A stretch of DNA of 24,021 nt from a virus (Duplodnaviria; Heunggongvirae; Uroviricota; Caudoviricetes): IMG/VR virus record IMGVR_UViG_638341084_000025. One strand, written 5' to 3'. Below the pieces are notes generated by a model. It did no database searches and was not told where the DNA came from. It worked only from the letters and a program-made list of their open reading frames with translations. Within the stretch, counting starts at the first letter, position 1; every line of letters begins with the position of its first letter. Shown here piece after piece: positions 1 through 11,459 of this stretch. A program made the position numbers and the translations under genes.

Positions 1-1020
1 TTAATCCCCCGTGGACACTGCGTGGACACTTACGCCACCTTTCAGCGGATTAAGGGCCACCGCATCCTGCAGGTAATCCGGTGCAAAATGCGCATATGCC
101 ATTGTTTGCTGAATGGTTGCGTGACCAAGAATCTTCTGAAGCGCAATAATGTTTCCTCCGTTCATCACAAAATGGCTGGCGAACGTATGCCGCAGCACAT
201 GTGCAGCCTGGCCTTTTGGTAAATCGGGCTTAACTCTTTTCAGCGCCAGGCAGAATTCCCGGTACTTCACCTCAAACAAGCCGCCTGTTTCTCTGGTTTT
301 GATCGCCTCACAAACTGCCTGCGAAATTGGCACTGTTCTCTTCCGGCCATTTTTGGTTTCAAGAAACGTTACACGGTTATGAACTATCTGTTCACCACGA
401 AGCTTACAAGCTTCACTCCAGCGCGCCCCTGTGCTTAAACACAAAAGCGCAACACGCCAGTAGTCGCCCTCCAGTGTATCGAGCAATAGCGCCACTTCCT
501 TCTGTGACAGGAACGCCATTTCTCGTGGAGATACATAAAGAATAGAAATTCCCCTTACTGGATGTTCTGCATCCCAAAGACCTATTTTTTTCAGCACGGT
601 AAACATTCCGGATAACCGATTCATGTACCTGTTAGCAGATGACGGTTTCAATCCTTCAGCTATCTTTTGAGAACGCCACGCGATAATTTTCAGCTTATCA
701 AGATCCACAGCCTGCATATCAGCGCCAAGCTCATTGATTATGTTGCGCAGTTGTTTTCGGTCTTCTTCCGCCTTACGCCTGTGCTGGCCGTGATACATCC
801 ACCACAACTCAAGCAAATCATTTAGCGTTCGACGATCACGGTAGCCCTGTATATATTCCCGCTTTTCAGCGTTCGCCATGATGTAGCGTTCAGTGGCCAC
901 CGCTACCGATTTTTTGTCAAATACCTTACGCACGCGCTTTCCCTTGCGTCCGTTCGGCCTGATGTCCAGCAAATAACGACCATCTTCGAGCTTCTTAATC
1001 GACATTACGAAGCCCTCCAA
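1..1020 (-). CDS. int: Phage integrase, tyrosine recombinase (P2 Int family)
   Basis: 339-aa minus-strand ORF; C-terminal catalytic region with the R..HxxR..Y pattern typical of tyrosine recombinases (VLRHTFASHF...GHATIQQTMAYAH); sits next to the repressor as in P2. Attachment site would be left of position 1, outside the window. Confidence 0.9.
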   Translation of the reverse strand: MEGFVMSIKKLEDGRYLLDIRPNGRKGKRVRKVFDKKSVAVATERYIMANAEKREYIQGYRDRRTLNDLLELWWMYHGQHRRKAEEDRKQLRNIINELGADMQAVDLDKLKIIAWRSQKIAEGLKPSSANRYMNRLSGMFTVLKKIGLWDAEHPVRGISILYVSPREMAFLSQKEVALLLDTLEGDYWRVALLCLSTGARWSEACKLRGEQIVHNRVTFLETKNGRKRTVPISQAVCEAIKTRETGGLFEVKYREFCLALKRVKPDLPKGQAAHVLRHTFASHFVMNGGNIIALQKILGHATIQQTMAYAHFAPDYLQDAVALNPLKGGVSVHAVSTGD

Positions 1021-1101: not shown

Positions 1102-1422
1102 TCAGCGGGATAATTTTTGGATTGTTTCGGTTGAAACGCGATCTCCCTCCGAATTGCAGGAACCATCAAGAGAGAGAGCCGGAGAAATTTGCCCGACCTC
1201 CGGCATCGTTTCATCTGTTGATAACCAATAAGCATACTTCTTAAATTTAGGGTGTTTCGTAACCTTAAGTAAGGCACCCTCTGTTACTTGCTTCCCCCTC
1301 ACCTCATAGTTAGTTACCGTCCCATAAGGCAGCCCAACACAATCCGCAAACTCCTGGCGGGTCATACCTTCTGCTTCACGAATCAGGCGAAATTTTTCAC
1401 CCATGCTTGACAAAGATGCCAT
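1102..1422 (-). CDS. C: P2 C-type immunity repressor (HTH)
   Basis: Minus-strand ORF open to 1476; start chosen at the ATG (rc of 1420-1422) that has a GGAGG ~11 nt upstream (rc of 1434-1438). HTH segment MTRQEFADCVGLPYGTVTNYE and C-terminal KFKKYAYWL...GQISPAL resemble P2 C as remembered. Start is uncertain (alternatives up to 1476). Confidence 0.7.
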   Translation of the reverse strand: MASLSSMGEKFRLIREAEGMTRQEFADCVGLPYGTVTNYEVRGKQVTEGALLKVTKHPKFKKYAYWLSTDETMPEVGQISPALSLDGSCNSEGDRVSTETIQKLSR

Positions 1423-1535
1423 ATCGGGCATATCCTCCATCGAAACATGCCACATCGGGCACAAACATAAAAACACTCAAATAAGCCGATATAAGCCATT
1501 TTGAGCCATTCGAACGAATTAGGGAGATTACCACA
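1423..1535. promoter_or_regulatory. Lysis-lysogeny switch region between divergent C and cox (Pc/Pe-like), with candidate operator repeats
   Basis: Intergenic between divergent repressor and cox. Direct repeats ATAAGCC at 1482-1488 and 1492-1498, ATCGGGCA twice around 1423-1460, and palindrome TTCGAACGAA. P2 C is known to bind direct repeats flanking the Pe -10; exact promoter hexamers not assigned. Confidence 0.4.
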
Positions 1536-1823
1536 ATGAGCGAATCAGAGCTTGGGGGGTTCATTCAGGTAGCACCATATCCACTTGAAGCGGTGCCATA
1601 TCAACTATTCGCCAAGATGATCGGCCGCAAGGAATCCACAGTCAGAACCATGATTGACGCAGCAAAGCTACCGACAATTGACTTTGTGAAACCAGGTTCA
1701 GTAAAGACGCGTGCATCAGAAAACTGGGTATATCTGCCAGCATTTAACGAAGGCATGCGCAAAGCGTTTTTTGAGCAACCGAAAGAACGCCGCGACGCAT
1801 GGTTGTTGTGGCTGGGACTTTAG
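1536..1823 (+). CDS. cox: Cox-like excisionase / early repressor
   Basis: 95 aa; AVPYQLFAKMIGRKESTVRTMIDAAKLP...WVYLPAFN...RDAWLLWLGL matches the remembered P2 Cox pattern (IPYQEFAKLIG...WVYLPAWN...GWLMWLGL). RBS GGGAG upstream; divergent from C. Confidence 0.8.
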   Translation: MSESELGGFIQVAPYPLEAVPYQLFAKMIGRKESTVRTMIDAAKLPTIDFVKPGSVKTRASENWVYLPAFNEGMRKAFFEQPKERRDAWLLWLGL

Positions 1824-5117: not shown

Positions 5118-7940
5118 ATGACGGCAGAGTATATCAGGGACTGGCAACAACCGCGCCACGCAGTGGGGCGTGAAGGAACGGAGATCCCCGCTCCTGAATC
5201 CGCGCTTTCCTCCTGGCTGGATGCCTACCGGGTAGAGAACGAACGCCGCCAGGAAATGGCTGATGCGGCGTTCTCCGCCACGCCGCTGGGCAACCTGATT
5301 AATAAAAGCCTGGACGCACAGGAAAAACAGGACAAAACCATCACACTGGCAGGAGACGCCAGAAAACAGGCACGTGGCGCGGTGGATGAAGCCATGGCCT
5401 CACTGCGCCTGCTGCCGTCCTATCTGCGCGATCCGCTTATTCGCCACCTCTCCTTCCTGCGCAAAAAACAGGAAGCCGATCGCCGGAAAGGCAAAAAGAG
5501 CTGGCAGGCTGAACGCTACGCGTGCGGAACCCTGCGCAAAATATTCGAACGTCTGGACCGCACCGACCACCGCTGGCTGACACCGGGTTATCGCTCCCTT
5601 GCCGGACGCGAACGCCTGGATGATTTGCTTTACCTGCCGCAGCTCAACAAACACCAGATACAGACGCTGGCCACCATGACGGCGGCGATGTTCAGCAGCA
5701 CCTTCGAAAAACTCTGCGATGGCTTTGGCGCGACTGATGGCGAGCTGACCATGGATGTAACGCTGAAGGCTTATCAGATGCTGGCCCGCATGGCGTTACA
5801 CCTGCACGCCATGCCTCCACATTATGACGCACTGACAACAGACAAAGACCGGAGGAACGAACCGGACACGGAGCTGCTGCCGGGCGCAATCCTTCGCCTG
5901 ACCTGTGCGGAATGGTGGAAACGCAAACTGTGGCTGTTACGTTGTGAGTGGCGGGAAGAACAACTCCGCGCCGCCTGTCTGGTTTCCAGAAAAACATCCC
6001 CCTATCTGAGCCAGGACGCGTTAAGCGAGTTTCGCGCACAGCGCGAGAAAACGCGCGATTTCCTGAAAAGTTTCATGCTGGAAAATGAAGACGGGTTCAC
6101 GATTGATCTCGAGACGGTGTATTACGCGGGAGTAAGTAACCCGGTTCACCGTAAGGCAGAAATGATGGCCACCATGAAGGGACTGGAACTTCTGGCCGAA
6201 GCCCGTGGCGACAGAGCGGTGTTTCTGACCGTCACCTGCCCGTCAAAATACCACGCAACAACGGAGAACGGTCATCCGAACCCCAAATGGAACGGGGCCA
6301 CCATGCGCGACTCCAGCGATTACCTGGTTAACACGTTTTTTGCGGCGGTCCGCAAAAAACTGAACCGCGACGGCCTGCGCTGGTATGGCATCCGCACGGT
6401 GGAGCCTCACCATGACGGCACTGTGCACTGGCATATGATGGTCTTTGCACATCCGGACGAGATTGAAACCATCGTGTCCCACGTCTGCGATATTGCCATT
6501 CAGGAGGACCGCCACGAGCTGGGCGATGACATAACTCCGCGTTTTAAGGCGGAGTATGTCGACGGCTCAAAAGGCACACCAACCAGCTACATCGCCACCT
6601 ACATCGGAAAGAACCTGGACAGCCGCGCCGTGGATGGCATCGACCCGAAAACGGGCAAGCCACGCGTTGACCACGAAACAGGTAAATCAATGGCCGAGAG
6701 CGTGGAGCGCGCCATCGGCTGGGCGCGCCTTCACCGGGTCCGTCAGTTCCAGTTCTTTGGCATCCCCTCCCGTCAGGTGTGGCGTGAACTGCGCCGCCTT
6801 GCCAGCCAGATGGCACGCAATCCGGAAGGCCCGCAACGGCTGAAAGATGATGCAATGGATGCGGTACTCGCTGCCGCCGATGCCGGGTGTTTTGCCACCT
6901 ACATTGAAAAACAGGGTGGCGTGCTTGTTCCACGCAAGGACTACCTGATTCGCACCGCCTACGACCTCGCAGATGAGCTGAACGATTACGGCGAACAGAG
7001 CGTACAGATTTACGGGATCTGGTCACCACTCATCGGGGAATCCTCCCGTGTGTGCACGCATCCGGATAACTGGAAGCTGGTAAGACGTAAACCAGAACCG
7101 GAAGACAACGCCCACGAAAATGGTTTTGACCTTCAGGGCGGCCCTGCCGCCCCTTGGACTCGTGGCAATAACTGTCCCCGTGTACAGGAAACAGGCAACA
7201 ACGGGACAGAACAGCCGGAAGAACGGCCAGCACCGTGGCCGCAGCTTCCTGACGGCGTTGAAGTAAATGAATGGATGCGCTCACTGAAACGGCACGAACG
7301 CCGGGCGCTGATGCGTTCGCTTCGTGACAAACAGGCAAAAAACAGCAGCGATGAAATGCAGAACTGGACACAGAGCCGCAAACAGCAGCGGCCTTTGCCT
7401 GATAACCACGAGTTACTCGCTAAAGAATGGCGGGAGTCTGCTGAATCTCTCGGCCTGCATATCGGTGAACAACAGATGCAGCACCTGTTACGGGGCGGCA
7501 GTCTGTACGTTGACGGCAGCATCATTGCACCGCAGGGATTTGAAATTGTACGCAAACCGGATACCCGCCCGGACAGCCGAATCACGCAGCTCTGGCAGCG
7601 TCTGAGCCGTAATCATGGCGTAAGCAGCACGGAGATCCGCCATAACCCGGTCGCCAGCTATCTGGCACAGCTGGGGGCATCAGACCCTGAAGCCGCCGCA
7701 CGCCTGGCATCCACACTTCAGCAGGACCAGAACACCATGAAAACACCCGTTACCGTGCTTTCTGACATGCTGCGCGCCATCCGCGACGCAGAGCACGCAC
7801 AGAGAATCAGTGAAACCACTGAACGCGCCAGCCGCAAAGCAGACCTGCTGCGGGGTGGCCTGACCAGTGGAAACAAAAAACAGACAGAAACGGGACTCAC
7901 GAATCCCGTAAATGAGCAAAAAACGCGCAGCGATATATGA
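5118..7940 (+). CDS. A: Replication initiation endonuclease, P2 gpA family (HUH rolling-circle initiator)
   Basis: 940 aa; HUH-type motif VHWHMMVF and paired active-site tyrosines YIATYIGK as in P2 A; position after the early genes. The C-terminal ~300 aa is low-complexity and appears to extend beyond P2 A (761 aa from memory). Confidence 0.85.
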   Translation: MTAEYIRDWQQPRHAVGREGTEIPAPESALSSWLDAYRVENERRQEMADAAFSATPLGNLINKSLDAQEKQDKTITLAGDARKQARGAVDEAMASLRLLPSYLRDPLIRHLSFLRKKQEADRRKGKKSWQAERYACGTLRKIFERLDRTDHRWLTPGYRSLAGRERLDDLLYLPQLNKHQIQTLATMTAAMFSSTFEKLCDGFGATDGELTMDVTLKAYQMLARMALHLHAMPPHYDALTTDKDRRNEPDTELLPGAILRLTCAEWWKRKLWLLRCEWREEQLRAACLVSRKTSPYLSQDALSEFRAQREKTRDFLKSFMLENEDGFTIDLETVYYAGVSNPVHRKAEMMATMKGLELLAEARGDRAVFLTVTCPSKYHATTENGHPNPKWNGATMRDSSDYLVNTFFAAVRKKLNRDGLRWYGIRTVEPHHDGTVHWHMMVFAHPDEIETIVSHVCDIAIQEDRHELGDDITPRFKAEYVDGSKGTPTSYIATYIGKNLDSRAVDGIDPKTGKPRVDHETGKSMAESVERAIGWARLHRVRQFQFFGIPSRQVWRELRRLASQMARNPEGPQRLKDDAMDAVLAAADAGCFATYIEKQGGVLVPRKDYLIRTAYDLADELNDYGEQSVQIYGIWSPLIGESSRVCTHPDNWKLVRRKPEPEDNAHENGFDLQGGPAAPWTRGNNCPRVQETGNNGTEQPEERPAPWPQLPDGVEVNEWMRSLKRHERRALMRSLRDKQAKNSSDEMQNWTQSRKQQRPLPDNHELLAKEWRESAESLGLHIGEQQMQHLLRGGSLYVDGSIIAPQGFEIVRKPDTRPDSRITQLWQRLSRNHGVSSTEIRHNPVASYLAQLGASDPEAAARLASTLQQDQNTMKTPVTVLSDMLRAIRDAEHAQRISETTERASRKADLLRGGLTSGNKKQTETGLTNPVNEQKTRSDI

Positions 7941-7982
7941 AGCGCGCACAAAACAGGCAAAAACGGGATTTCAGAATCCCGT
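7890..7982. promoter_or_regulatory. Two near-identical palindromes, candidate parC centromere/operator
   Basis: ACGGGACTCACGAATCCCGT (7890-7909, inside the A 3' end) and ACGGGATTTCAGAATCCCGT (7963-7982), centres ~73 bp apart, just upstream of the parM RBS AAGGAAAA. Confidence 0.35.
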
Positions 7983-8016
7983 AAACGATTAATTAATCAA
8001 CATAAGGAAAACCGAC

Positions 8017-8976
8017 ATGAAAATTTACATCGACGACGGCTCCACCAACATCAAGCTGGCATGGACTGAGAACGGCGAACGCCGCAACGCCATCAGCCCG
8101 AACAGCTTCAAGTCGGAATGGTCTGCGCCGTTCGGTGGCTCGCAGCCTGCTAACTACATGCTTGATGGCGTGCGCTATGGTTTTGATCCGGTCAGCGATC
8201 GCTTTGTCCAGACGACCGACACGCAATACCAGTACAGCGATGTGAATGTCATTGCCATTCATCACGCGCTGGTCAAATCAGACATCACGCCACAGGAAGT
8301 GGATGTGGTTGTTACCCTGCCACTGAGCGAATATTTCGACACAAACGCACAGCCGGACATGGCCAACATCAACCGCAAAAAAGCGAACGTCATGCGCCCG
8401 GTGGAGTACCAGAACGGCGAAGCATTCACTATCCGTAACGTACGGGTTATGCCTGAATCCATTCCGGCTGGCTTTAAAGCACTGGCTGACATGAGTCCGT
8501 TTGAATCCCTGCTGATTGTGGATTTGGGCGGAACCACGCTGGATGTGGCAAAGGTTCAGGGGCAACTGGCAGGTATCAGCCAGGTGTTTTGCGATCCACA
8601 CGTAGGCGTTTCTCTTATGGCCGATGCCGTACTGTCGGTGATGGCCACTAACGGTATGCGCACCAGTCACCACATCGCCAATACCATTATCGAACATCGC
8701 CATAATGAAGCCTGGCTGCGCCAGCACATCCACAATGACGCGCATTACGCCAGCCTGATGGCGGTTATTCGTGAAAAGGAAGAAACACTGAAACAACGCG
8801 TGATCCGCGCGCTGGCGGTTTTTTCGGGTTACGGGCGGGTGATGGTTGTCGGTGGCGGGGCGGAGATTGTGGCACCCGCTATCCGCGAAGCCTGCGGAGT
8901 TAATGCGACTTTCATCGCGGACGGGGTGCCACANTTTGCTCTGGTTAATGGGCTGTACGCAATGGACAAGGAGTAA
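8017..8976 (+). CDS. parM: Actin-like segregation ATPase ParM/StbA
   Basis: 319 aa; MKIYIDDGSTNIKLAW, YSDVNVIAIHHAL, VMPESIPAG, LIVDLGGTTLD and VMVVGGGAEI closely follow the remembered plasmid R1 ParM sequence. One N at 8934. Confidence 0.85.
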   Translation: MKIYIDDGSTNIKLAWTENGERRNAISPNSFKSEWSAPFGGSQPANYMLDGVRYGFDPVSDRFVQTTDTQYQYSDVNVIAIHHALVKSDITPQEVDVVVTLPLSEYFDTNAQPDMANINRKKANVMRPVEYQNGEAFTIRNVRVMPESIPAGFKALADMSPFESLLIVDLGGTTLDVAKVQGQLAGISQVFCDPHVGVSLMADAVLSVMATNGMRTSHHIANTIIEHRHNEAWLRQHIHNDAHYASLMAVIREKEETLKQRVIRALAVFSGYGRVMVVGGGAEIVAPAIREACGVNATFIADGVPXFALVNGLYAMDKE

Positions 8977-8980
8977 ACCA

Positions 8981-9292
8981 ATGACGACACCAACCAGACG
9001 GATAAGTTTCTATCTGAAGCCCGCCGCCGTCAAGAACGAAGGAGAAGCATGCGCCTGGCTGGACAGCCTTACACCAGAAGCCCGCAAAAGCGGCCAACGC
9101 GTGGCTTTTCTGGCCGGGCTGGCACTTCTGAAGACGAATCCGGCAGAGGCTTACCGACTGGCCGCATGGGCTGATGATGAGATGTTACCTGTGACACAAA
9201 TCAGCTCAAAAAAGTTTGAAGCACAGTCTGCACCAGTGGCTAAGATAACCAGCCAGATGGCTGGGAATATCCGGGCGTTATTTCCTGAGTAA
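8981..9292 (+). CDS. parR: ParR-like centromere-binding adaptor (putative)
   Basis: 103 aa immediately after parM (stop 8976, ATG 8981, RBS AAGGAG); N-terminal RISFYLKP...ACAWLDSL and FLAGLALL loosely resemble R1 ParR (RHH fold). Assigned mainly by position and size. Confidence 0.45.
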   Translation: MTTPTRRISFYLKPAAVKNEGEACAWLDSLTPEARKSGQRVAFLAGLALLKTNPAEAYRLAAWADDEMLPVTQISSKKFEAQSAPVAKITSQMAGNIRALFPE

Positions 9293-9412
9293 AAGCATCT
9301 GCGCGAAAAATGCTCACGTTTATAGAGACAGTATCATTCCATTTGGCACACTTACTTCAATAATCGATCTGTTAAACAAATAGATTGTCTATTATCTATC
9401 GATTAAAACGAT

Positions 9413-9477
9413 CAATTATCTTGACAGTAATGTGCCTTTTTGTAAGATCGTTCGCATTGTGAGCGACAAGATAATTG
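9413..9477 (+). promoter_or_regulatory. Candidate promoter (TTGACA-16 nt-TAAGAT) bracketed by a perfect 11-bp inverted repeat
   Basis: -35 TTGACA 9421-9426, -10 TAAGAT 9443-9448; CAATTATCTTG (9413-9423) and its reverse complement CAAGATAATTG (9467-9477) flank the core, as an operator would. Confidence 0.35.
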
Positions 9478-9498
9478 CGCGGCATTGTCCATGCAAAA

Positions 9499-9526
9499 CG
9501 CCCCAATAGCAGCAACTATTGGGGCG
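9499..9526 (-). terminator. Perfect 11-bp-stem hairpin; terminator-like on the minus strand
   Basis: CGCCCCAATAG (9499-9509) / CTATTGGGGCG (9516-9526), loop CAGCAA; on the minus strand it is followed by TTTT (rc of 9495-9498); no U-tract on the plus strand. Confidence 0.4.
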
Positions 9527-9554
9527 TAAAACTCGGTCGGACTCACTTAACCTG

Positions 9555-9635
9555 ATATGCGTGCCTTCCGAAGTAAATCAAAATGTGCGTCGTATATTTT
9601 ATTGCTTACACGCACCTCTGTAAAGGCACGCATAT
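9555..9635. repeat. 13-bp perfect inverted repeat enclosing an inner hairpin
   Basis: ATATGCGTGCCTT (9555-9567) and AAGGCACGCATAT (9623-9635), 55 bp apart; inner stem GTGCGT(9585-9590)/ACGCAC(9610-9615); followed on the plus strand by TTTTT, then GAGG and the GTG start of the next ORF. Confidence 0.5.
9596..9624 (-). promoter_or_regulatory. Candidate minus-strand promoter (TTTACA-17 nt-TAAAAT), convergent with the plus-strand promoter
   Basis: rc of 9619-9624 = TTTACA, 17-nt spacer, rc of 9596-9601 = TAAAAT; it would drive a ~100-nt transcript antisense to the ORF89 leader, ending at the 9499-9526 hairpin. Confidence 0.35.
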
Positions 9636-9656
9636 TTTTCCTATGAGGTAAATAAA

Positions 9657-9926
9657 GTGCGGGCTAAAACAGGTATTTGCAAGAACCCTCATCGTTATAA
9701 TCCAACATTTCTGTCTCTCCCTGAATATCAAGGACAAGAAGGTCGGCACAAATGCGCTGCCTGTGCTTTTGAGCTAGGCATAAAAGATGCGCTTGAAGGA
9801 CGCGCTATGGCTCAGAATGATTTAGTTTTAGCTAACATTCCGTTTAGCCAGGCTGGAACTGTAAGGCACAGAGATGCCTATGAAGCATATGTTCGTGGTT
9901 GGCGATTAATAAACAGCAACAATTGA
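9657..9926 (+). CDS. Small Cys/His protein (89 aa), possible zinc-binding; unknown function
   Basis: GTG start with GAGG 9 nt upstream; Cys8, His12, His32, Cys34, Cys37 arrangement; followed by a clean terminator. Last gene before cos (P2 has orf91/tin/old in this position). Confidence 0.5.
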   Translation: MRAKTGICKNPHRYNPTFLSLPEYQGQEGRHKCAACAFELGIKDALEGRAMAQNDLVLANIPFSQAGTVRHRDAYEAYVRGWRLINSNN

Positions 9927-9934
9927 TACTTTTG

Positions 9935-9958
9935 AAGCGCCGATAAGGCGCTTTTTTT
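9935..9958 (+). terminator. Rho-independent terminator
   Basis: Stem AAGCGCC(9935-9941)/GGCGCTT(9947-9953), loop GATAA, then a T-run to 9958. Confidence 0.6.
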
Positions 9959-10084
9959 GTTTGCACGATAGTGCACAAGTTTGCACAATTTTTTTGAACG
10001 ACTTTTTGTACTTCCGGCCCGCGTGGTGGCTGGATCCGTCAAGGATCCGTACGTGCACAAAAAAACGCGTTTTTTCTGCGCGCA

Positions 10085-10412: not shown

Positions 10413-11459
10413 TCAGGATGTGGGCTGGGTGTCTAACAGTGCGTAAGGGTTAAAGCGGATCACCTCTTCGCCAAGCCAGTCATTGATGTGCTTCATGGCC
10501 TCCATGACGGGCATCAGCTCGTTAATTGCGTAAACCCGCGCGGCCTTCTCCACATCACCAAACGCACTTTTTTCGCCCGGCATCGCCCCCATCAGTTGCG
10601 GCGGAACGCGGTGCGCAGCCAGCACATCATCACGGGATGCCGCCTTAACATTCATGAACTCATCTTTTGCGGTGATCTGCTGGAACGGCAAAATTTGCAC
10701 CCCTTCTTTGCCCCCGTTGGGCGCATGAATGAGCACGTTTTTAAATGCACCACCACCACGCGCACCCTGTAACGTTTCTTTCAGGGAGTCCATGCTTTCG
10801 CGGTTTACCTGCGCTGCACCGATGTAGATGATGCACCCGGCGTGGGATCCGTTGTCGTAGTACAGTTTTCTGAACATGTCCGCCGAATGAGAAAGGCTGG
10901 CCGAGAGTAATGCGCCAAGATATTCCGGCATGCCGTAGATTTCCTGGTTAATATCCGGATTCATCAGGTGGCACACTTTGCCAGGGCGAAACTGGAACGC
11001 GTCCTTGCCATCCTGCACATACCACCATGATTCAAGATCGCTTCCGCGTCGCATGTATTTCGCCAGGGCGTGCCGTAATTTAAGCGGTTCGCCGAGCATA
11101 TTGCTCCGAAGCTCAAGGAATGCGTTACCGAACACAAACCAGTCCAGCGCCAGCGCCGAGAAATCCTGCCGGGAAAGCAGCGGGTGCGGGATGTAGCACC
11201 CGAGCAATACATTACGCTTAAAGTAAAGCGCAGACTGATGCCAGGACGTTTGCCGGGCNGCTCTTGCCAGACNGTACCAGTCCACCGGGGTTTCATACCA
11301 CCGCCCGTTATCAGCACAGTACATATTGTCCAGCAGGTCATGCCCGGTCAGGCGATAAGGACCATCAAATGTGAATGCACTGAGCGATGATTCTTTCCTG
11401 AGCGCATCAGCGAGATCAATGCGTGAACTCATGCGCACTTTTTTATTTTTTCTGCTCAT
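10413..11459 (-). CDS. Q: Portal protein (P2 gpQ)
   Basis: 348 aa minus-strand ORF; N-terminus MSRKNKKVRMSSRIDLADAL and size fit P2 Q; start codon overlaps the P stop. Contains N bases (X in translation). Confidence 0.9.
   Translation of the reverse strand: MSRKNKKVRMSSRIDLADALRKESSLSAFTFDGPYRLTGHDLLDNMYCADNGRWYETPVDWYXLARXARQTSWHQSALYFKRNVLLGCYIPHPLLSRQDFSALALDWFVFGNAFLELRSNMLGEPLKLRHALAKYMRRGSDLESWWYVQDGKDAFQFRPGKVCHLMNPDINQEIYGMPEYLGALLSASLSHSADMFRKLYYDNGSHAGCIIYIGAAQVNRESMDSLKETLQGARGGGAFKNVLIHAPNGGKEGVQILPFQQITAKDEFMNVKAASRDDVLAAHRVPPQLMGAMPGEKSAFGDVEKAARVYAINELMPVMEAMKHINDWLGEEVIRFNPYALLDTQPTS

Follow-up and report, generated by a model that had tools for sequence, protein, structure and literature searches.

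A candidate ParMRC-type partition cassette adjoining the replication gene of a P88-like prophage

The viral record IMGVR_UViG_638341084_000025, of which we analysed a stretch of 24,021 nucleotides (24 kb; the window), is a P2-type prophage in which integrase, C-like repressor, Cox, gpA and portal genes were all found, and directly after its replication gene gpA it carries two genes, parM and parR, preceded by a pair of palindromes. The cassette is best explained as a type II partition system (ParMRC, of the R1/StbAB type) that has been inherited vertically with the phage and, judged from its sequence, it is intact and almost certainly functional. On balance, we consider it probable that ParMRC partitions or positions an extrachromosomal circular form of the phage genome and is co-expressed with replication. 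The initial annotation of this DNA had described a complete-looking layout of ParM, ParR and upstream repeats on an integrase-encoding P2-like prophage, and this description holds. It had also regarded a partition system on such a phage as unexpected, but such modules were already annotated and have been discussed by Rousset 2022 and Pfeifer 2021. The module is an ordinary part of a very common prophage lineage, and what we add to the literature is modest: sequence comparisons place the gene pair in the phage backbone instead of the cargo, locate the boundary of the neighbouring hotspot inside parR, and reveal a conserved candidate centromere of two sites.

The parMR genes and the candidate centromere

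The cassette consists of the following features.

8017-8976, plus strand: parM, actin-like segregation ATPase, 319 residues (Pfam, PDB 1MWK, PHROG 691)
8981-9292, plus strand: parR (stbB-like), predicted centromere-binding adaptor, 103 residues (Pfam, PHROG 2515)
7890-7909, no strand assigned: candidate parC site 1, palindrome ACGGGACTCACGAATCCCGT, within the repeat copy 7874-7915, inside the 3' end of gpA
7963-7982, no strand assigned: candidate parC site 2, palindrome ACGGGATTTCAGAATCCCGT, within the repeat copy 7947-7988, in the gpA-parM spacer (76 bp)

Profile searches of both proteins, which the initial annotation had proposed, returned significant matches to the ParM and ParR families. 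In ParM, residues 1-157 match Pfam StbA_N (9.8e-81) and residues 159-316 the ParM C-terminal domain (6e-67), residues 1-316 align end to end with the R1 ParM structures (PDB 1MWK, E 3.6e-91), and the phosphate- and adenosine-binding motifs IDDGSTNIKL, MPESIPAG, DLGGTTLD and GGGAE are kept in comparison with R1 ParM. The clear ParM homologue that had been reported here is thereby confirmed over its full length, and it supplies the actin-fold ATPase that characterizes type II ParMRC systems. The ratio of nonsynonymous to synonymous substitution rates (dN/dS) for parM is 0.05-0.10 among Escherichia coli-type copies and 0.14-0.19 against copies from other genera; by this measure parM is under strong purifying selection. 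Full-length ParM sequences fall into four clusters at the 90% level. In the window an N at 8934 masks codon 306 of parM, which reads CAG (Gln) in an E. coli chromosome that is 99.9% identical.

The downstream gene, first noted as being of ParR size, belongs to the StbB/ParR family, with matches to Pfam Plasmid_stab_B (1e-23) and, over its full length, to PHROG 2515 'partition protein' (2e-59); a PDB sequence search with ParR returned no match. Its ATG at 8981 lies 4 nt past the parM stop and has a GGAG Shine-Dalgarno sequence, so that the locus also has the adaptor gene downstream of parM that is typical of type II systems. Starts at 8978 and 8846 were considered for parR and rejected. The ParR alleles are 53-98% identical to each other and form more than 40 clusters at the 90% level. 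Relative to the window at least three classes can be distinguished (100%, ~83% and ~55% identity): the window allele has 83% identity to that of P88 and 55% to that of 569R5/E. albertii, with the ParMs at 96-99%. This diversity is limited to a hypervariable linker, approximately residues 62-95; on either side of it, the motif RRISFYLKP...LAGLAL at the N-terminus and that of the ten C-terminal residues (N-I-x-x-x-F-P, in full (K/A)xNIxxLFPE) are invariant among 21 alleles. An alignment pairs the tail with the end of an IncF StbB/ParR of the R1 type (...ETKKNAMKLIN), and it is the final 17 residues of the R1 protein that were crystallised in complex with ParM (PDB 4A62; PMC3794156). The ParR tail is, by this comparison, a predicted ParM-binding peptide.

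The upstream palindromes of the initial annotation are indeed present at 7890-7909 and 7963-7982. Both are of the form 8-4-8 with the pattern CGGGA-N8-TCCCG, one in each copy of a 42-nt direct repeat, and they lie 73 bp apart, the second ending 35 bp before the parM ATG. Exactly two exact matches to CGGGA-N8-TCCCG occur in the window, against a chance expectation of 0.74 even with one mismatch allowed. In nine E. coli-type loci, which cover all three ParR allele classes, the arms are invariant and the loops vary. Although the DNA upstream of parM in Hafnia and Plesiomonas is unalignable with that of E. coli, exactly two GGG-N10-CCC sites are found there as well, at -128/-55 and -131/-59 from parM, respectively, compared with -125/-52 in E. 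coli, and the spacing of 72-73 bp is conserved among these three lineages, whose ParMs are only 60-61% identical. Shuffling of the three upstream regions produced such a site pair in 0, 0 and 1 of 20000 cases. Since only GGG and CCC are able to pair in Plesiomonas, the conserved feature is a sequence motif with its spacing and not a hairpin.

Repeated upstream sites, as expected of a parC, can thus be recognised by position, core and spacing in three lineages. The palindrome arm AA(A/T)CCC is similar to AAAACCC, the core of the iterons in R1 parC, as found upstream of an IncF parM, and two iterons suffice for binding of R1 ParR (PMC4949242); ParR is predicted to bind the two palindromes. Direct 11-bp iterons in the A-rich flanks were also considered and rejected, as the AAAC occurrences lack regular phasing. 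A search of Rfam returned nothing at the palindromes, with sub-threshold matches only, to a hairpin at 9498-9527.

The closest well-known counterpart is the parMRC (stbAB) locus of R1/R100, which has the same order of centromere, parM and parR. The phage ParM is 46-50% identical to its plasmid counterpart over the full length with the ATP-binding motifs kept, the two ParRs share a Pfam family, their N-termini are homologous and their C-terminal tails agree in K-x-N-x-x-x-L, the centromere arm is like the iteron core, and the CATAAGGA leader before the start codon is also common to both. The carrier of parMRC in R1/R100 is a plasmid, whereas here it is an integrating phage. Moreover, R1 parC is made of two sets of five direct 11-bp iterons around a strong promoter, whereas the phage locus has two palindromes, one of them in gpA, and no canonical promoter was detected.

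Distribution of the module and the edge of the variable slot

A megablast search with 7880-9420 identified 14 phage records that carry the module at 94-97% DNA identity, including P88, P884B11, 520873, 503458, PhiR44_2, Chuche and Citrobacter phiSM, and the module is present in every sequenced P88-like (Xuanwuvirus) phage. In these phages it occupies the same locus after gpA, with ParM 96-98% identical, and there is no essential difference from the window, which has one of the ParR allele classes and its own downstream cargo. Annotated phage records mostly label the genes as partition or ParM, PHROGs likewise as partition system, and RefSeq as 'plasmid segregation protein ParM' and 'plasmid partitioning/stability family protein'; the genome papers of P88 and phiSM list the parMR genes only. 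When ParM was searched by tblastn against ~50,000 phage records, matches were obtained only in P88-like phages and in the P1-like phage-plasmid D6 (47%), and none in P2, 186 or other P2-like genera.

The initial annotation had placed the genes among the accessory cargo of the P2 hotspot, and here the data point the other way. Of 5426 complete E. coli genomes, 1304 carry the module, at 1450 chromosomal places and on 2 plasmid records, and 1321 the gpA type of the window at ≥80% coverage (range 1321-1443), so that parMR is about as frequent as its gpA. The slot at 9293-9961 was found in 166: of 1142 E. coli genomes with a match, no more than 166 contain the whole 1.1 kb that follows parR, and most of the others match only from 9962 onward, in conserved cos-proximal DNA. 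The GC content of parMR (0.53-0.55) is at the level of the backbone, that of 9293-10000 only 0.43-0.47. Hotspot cargo in the sense of Rousset 2022 varies in presence and resembles defence proteins; neither was observed for parMR, and no PADLOC family matches ParM, ParR or the 89-residue open reading frame (ORF) that lies downstream.

The survey of related P2-like prophages that had been suggested at the outset was also informative. A scan of genome contigs with ParM gave only nine loci, and the context in other genera was taken from a separate search of the encoding contigs. In addition to the P88-like phages, four further genera have parMR at the equivalent position, with the order gpA, no to two ORFs, parM, parR, variable genes and portal conserved in P2-like prophages of Plesiomonas, Hafnia, Serratia and Enterobacter ludwigii, whose ParMs are 62%, 61%, 57% and 53% identical to that of the window, respectively. 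The variable genes of these prophages include HicAB and a KAP NTPase. The chromosomal ParMs of Dickeya and Mangrovibacter (~50%) are found in an integrative and conjugative element (ICE) and in an integrated plasmid, not in a P2-like phage. When 12 ParMs were placed in a neighbour-joining tree, those of plasmids and ICEs formed a single clade, outside which the P2-like ParMs stood in two groups. A corresponding gap was observed in the plasmid collection, where at least 4994 records have ParMs below 60% identity and only six lie at 95-99%; where examined, these six proved to be plasmid-labelled records of prophage DNA or of an entire phage genome. The co-occurrence of gpA and parMR, the synteny and the ParM tree make the association with P2-like phages look old and vertical. 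Taken together, these comparisons indicate that parMR is backbone of the P88-like (Xuanwuvirus) lineage and travels with its gpA, and is not swappable hotspot cargo.

Two further ParM matches deserve mention. Contig NZ_JBQPOM010000071.1 (226 kb, 'Vagococcus sp. WN89Y') encodes a ParM that is 97% identical to the E. coli prophage ParM and is probably enterobacterial contamination of the assembly. The linear Shigella boydii 'plasmid' NZ_CP049283.1 contains at 1590-2501 a degraded, IS1-interrupted P2-like remnant with parM fragments (residues 119-313, 69% identity) and a frameshifted parR, and is among the few visibly decayed copies.

The position at which variability begins can be located from the phage alignments, many of which stop exactly at 9292, the parR stop. 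P88, 569R5, phiSM, pS2122_1 and the window each have different genes between parR and portal, and Table S5A of Rousset 2022 lists StbA and Plasmid_stab_B with many different partners. Between the parR genes of the window and P88, dS is 0.07 over codons 1-60 and rises to 0.55 in the linker and 2.1 in the tail. This jump after about codon 60 places the left recombination boundary of the hotspot inside parR, and tail dN of 0.03 despite saturated synonymous sites indicates that the ParR tail is strongly constrained. The hotspot of the type described by Rousset begins after parR.

Proposed role of ParMRC and alternative explanations

The genes of the prophage that surround the cassette and bear on its expression are as follows.

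1-1020, minus strand: integrase of the P2-type prophage
1102-1476, minus strand: C-like helix-turn-helix repressor
1536-1823, plus strand: Cox, first of a co-directional early array up to gpA
5118-7940, plus strand: gpA, rolling-circle replication endonuclease, 940 residues (Pfam Phage_GPA 1.7e-129), directly 5' of parMR and in the same direction
10413-11459, minus strand: portal; the terminase is also on the minus strand

The gpA of the window has a long stretch after the Phage_GPA domain (179-503), the end of which encodes candidate parC site 1; in the parMR-bearing relatives gpA has 785 (Enterobacter), 789 (Plesiomonas), 835 (Hafnia) and 907 (Serratia) residues.

A Pe-like promoter (TTGACA-18-TATCCT) is found upstream of cox, no plus-strand terminator-like site was found between 4340 and parM, and the first strong terminator after parMR is at 9934-9954. 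With neither a terminator nor a recognisable promoter of its own before parM, parMR is probably made together with the replication proteins; most simply, it would form the tail of the early replication operon and be made after infection or induction. A sigma-70 promoter over palindrome 2, with TTCAGA as the -35 element, was considered and rejected because no acceptable -10 element was present at threshold.

In light of these observations, we propose that parMR, as the end of the cox-to-gpA early operon, would be expressed with the replication proteins after infection or induction. ParR dimers, through a ribbon-helix-helix N-terminus, would bind the GGGA-N8-TCCC palindrome pair, spaced 73 bp, just 5' of parM, and their conserved C-terminal tails would capture ParM-ATP filaments, which, by growing between paired copies, would push circular phage genomes apart. 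The target would be an extrachromosomal circle, either before integration or excised and replicating, and the expected phenotype is that copies are distributed or positioned and that the episomal form is lost less often.

This role would be analogous to that of two cytoskeletal systems of integrative elements. The srpMRC system of SXT/R391 ICEs is, as here, an actin-type partition system on a normally integrated element, and it stabilises the excised, rolling-circle-replicating plasmid-like form (PMC4489591), but its carrier is an ICE and not a phage, and, unlike the phage proteins, which are close homologues of those of R1, SrpM and SrpR have only a distant relationship to R1 ParMR. AlpC, AlpA and alpS of the Corynebacterium prophage CGP3 are induced early after excision and are needed for efficient replication of phage DNA (PMC4446434); they differ in belonging to the unrelated Alp family, in their Gram-positive host and in their reversed gene order, with the adaptor first. 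Should the partition role be correct, the P88-like phages would provide the third integrative-element case of cytoskeletal partition after SXT/R391 ICEs and CGP3. The question raised is why an integrating phage keeps an R1-like machine under strong purifying selection; close homologues of the R1 system occur in roughly one in four P2-like prophages of E. coli, among them prophages in O157:H7, O26 and ST131 backgrounds. Deciding between a transient episome, a hidden plasmid lifestyle and a role in replication would clarify how very common prophages are inherited and lost.

Several points weigh against the partition reading. Only two sites are visible compared with the ten iterons of R1, and they are inverted rather than direct, so that an R1-style array is not seen; in the Serratia/Enterobacter group the upstream layout is different and has a large inverted repeat. 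No sigma-70 match was found between gpA and parM at the scan threshold, and the absence of a canonical promoter overlapping the sites means that R1-style autoregulation is not supported. It is possible that a weak or non-canonical promoter gives parMR expression in the lysogen, and the time at which parMR is expressed is one that we infer. The AlphaFold model of the ParR monomer is of low confidence (pLDDT 56); its helices at 20-61, disordered stretch at 62-86 and C-terminal helix at 87-100 would fit a ribbon-helix-helix domain followed by a disordered linker and a C-terminal helix. Finally, the initial annotation had allowed that the module might prove to be a common and already characterised component of its lineage: it is common and has been described, but literature searches found no experiments on parMR, either in P88 or in P2-like phages.

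Of the other explanations, a dual lifestyle is a tentative possibility, in which the element is a true phage-plasmid that, under certain conditions or in certain hosts (such as those whose attB is absent or already occupied), persists for long periods as a low-copy plasmid prophage, with gpA replication throttled and ParMRC ensuring inheritance. Rousset 2022, who discuss parMR, propose an episomal state, and Pfeifer 2021 name P88 among candidate phage-plasmids that would have both an episomal and an integrative state, so that both hold this hypothesis. D6 provides a precedent, as a P1-like phage-plasmid that uses a phage-borne R1-type StbA ParM 47% identical to that of the window, although the 91-kb D6 lives obligately as a plasmid prophage, in which the partition role is conventional. 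Also in favour is pZ1323PEC0009-2 (NZ_CP148288.1, PLSDB), a circular, complete P88-like genome of 34,461 bp with int and parMR, in which a 1-kb stretch spanning a variable gene, parR and the 3' end of parM matches an integrated prophage of the Z1323HEC0067 chromosome at 100% identity. However, base 1 of this record lies at the att-core edge, as would be the case for the assembly-graph node of an excising prophage, and it may be an induced replicative form; the record shows that circles exist and does not thereby establish stable inheritance. Against a plasmid lifestyle, in complete E. coli genomes the module lies on the chromosome at 1450 of 1452 places, integrase and att are retained in the window and its relatives where independence from integrase would be expected of a phage-plasmid, and gpA is a rolling-circle lytic initiator with no evident plasmid-type copy control. 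A query with the attP junction returned no record with an intact junction in the complete-genome set, in which strain Z1323PEC0009 is not included. Stable plasmid carriage is thus possible and rare in assemblies.

Several of the other 'plasmid' matches are chimeric or chromosomal records or a degraded remnant, and we rejected the Salmonella and Shigella matches as evidence of an episome, the former being a chimeric or chromosomal record and the latter an IS1-riddled remnant. The Salmonella record pS2122_1 (NZ_CP110658.1, a 272-kb IncHI2 'plasmid') contains, at 1-30957, the chromosomal genes rplS, aroF, tyrA and pheA together with a P88-like prophage with parMR and sopE, and reflects either chimeric assembly or capture of chromosomal DNA by the plasmid.

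About as tentatively, ParMRC could be a DNA-handling machine of the lytic or establishment phase that is coupled to the HUH nickase gpA and does not serve plasmid maintenance. The two-palindrome centromere, lying partly in the 3' end of the replication gene, would load ParR and ParM onto new monomeric circles, and thereby stimulate rolling-circle replication or distribute the circles for packaging, or do both. The task and the centromere architecture would then each be new for an R1-type ParMRC. In a more general and somewhat more doubtful form, ParM and ParR would physically assist gpA, or position replicating and monomeric circles for packaging, during lytic growth, and not secure inheritance when cells divide. 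Coupling to an HUH nickase is conceivable because R1 ParM and ParR bind and stimulate the HUH relaxase TraI (PMC4949242), AlpAC is required for efficient CGP3 replication (PMC4446434), and parMR always adjoins gpA, with one candidate ParR site within the gpA 3' end. The argument for such help is nevertheless purely one of analogy, the Hafnia and Enterobacter loci have one or two additional ORFs between gpA and parM, and parMR is absent from P2, 186 and most other P2-like phages, which replicate well.

A role in defence, exclusion or incompatibility, in which ParR and ParM of the prophage would interfere with incoming phages or plasmids bearing related centromeres, is improbable. The initial annotation had raised exclusion or defence, and the locus does adjoin a known anti-phage hotspot. 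The diversity of ParR alleles, far above that of ParM, could in principle reflect incompatibility-driven diversification, as described for the ParMRC families of Clostridium perfringens (PMC9426499). However, this diversity lies in the linker only, and the invariant DNA-binding N-terminus and palindrome arms point to a shared specificity. Furthermore, there is no PADLOC match, presence is constant within the lineage, parM is under strong purifying selection, and the GC content of parMR equals that of the phage backbone, unlike the downstream cargo.

Least credible of all is an inert relic, with decaying passenger genes and palindromes that are RNA hairpins or minus-strand terminators: both palindromes do look terminator-like on the minus strand (a hairpin followed by a T-rich tail), but the ORFs are intact and under strong purifying selection in over 1300 genomes and in five genera, no gene on the minus strand runs into the palindromes, the T-run in Hafnia is on the wrong side, and the motif and 72-73 bp spacing kept in Plesiomonas, where only GGG/CCC pair, argue for a protein-binding site.

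The slot downstream of parR

Outside the module, the region between parR and the conserved cos-proximal DNA can be summarised as one feature.

9293-9961, no strand assigned: variable cargo slot of low GC content, with an 89-residue ORF at 9657-9926 and a terminator at 9934-9954

The 89-residue ORF matches PHROG 3941, the function label of which is unknown, and has no Pfam match. A total of 12 N are present in the window (3426, 8934, 10127, 10146, 10149, 10151, 10409, 11259, 11273, 11477, 11492 and 15287), of which four lie in the cos-proximal region. Within the slot, a plus-strand promoter-like site is found at 9421-9448, together with a convergent minus-strand promoter-like site at 9624-9596 and a hairpin with a T-run at 9527-9498. 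These minus-strand signals would yield an antisense RNA of ~100 nt across the 5' untranslated region of the 89-residue ORF. A perfect 13-nt inverted repeat is also present at 9555-9567 and 9623-9635.

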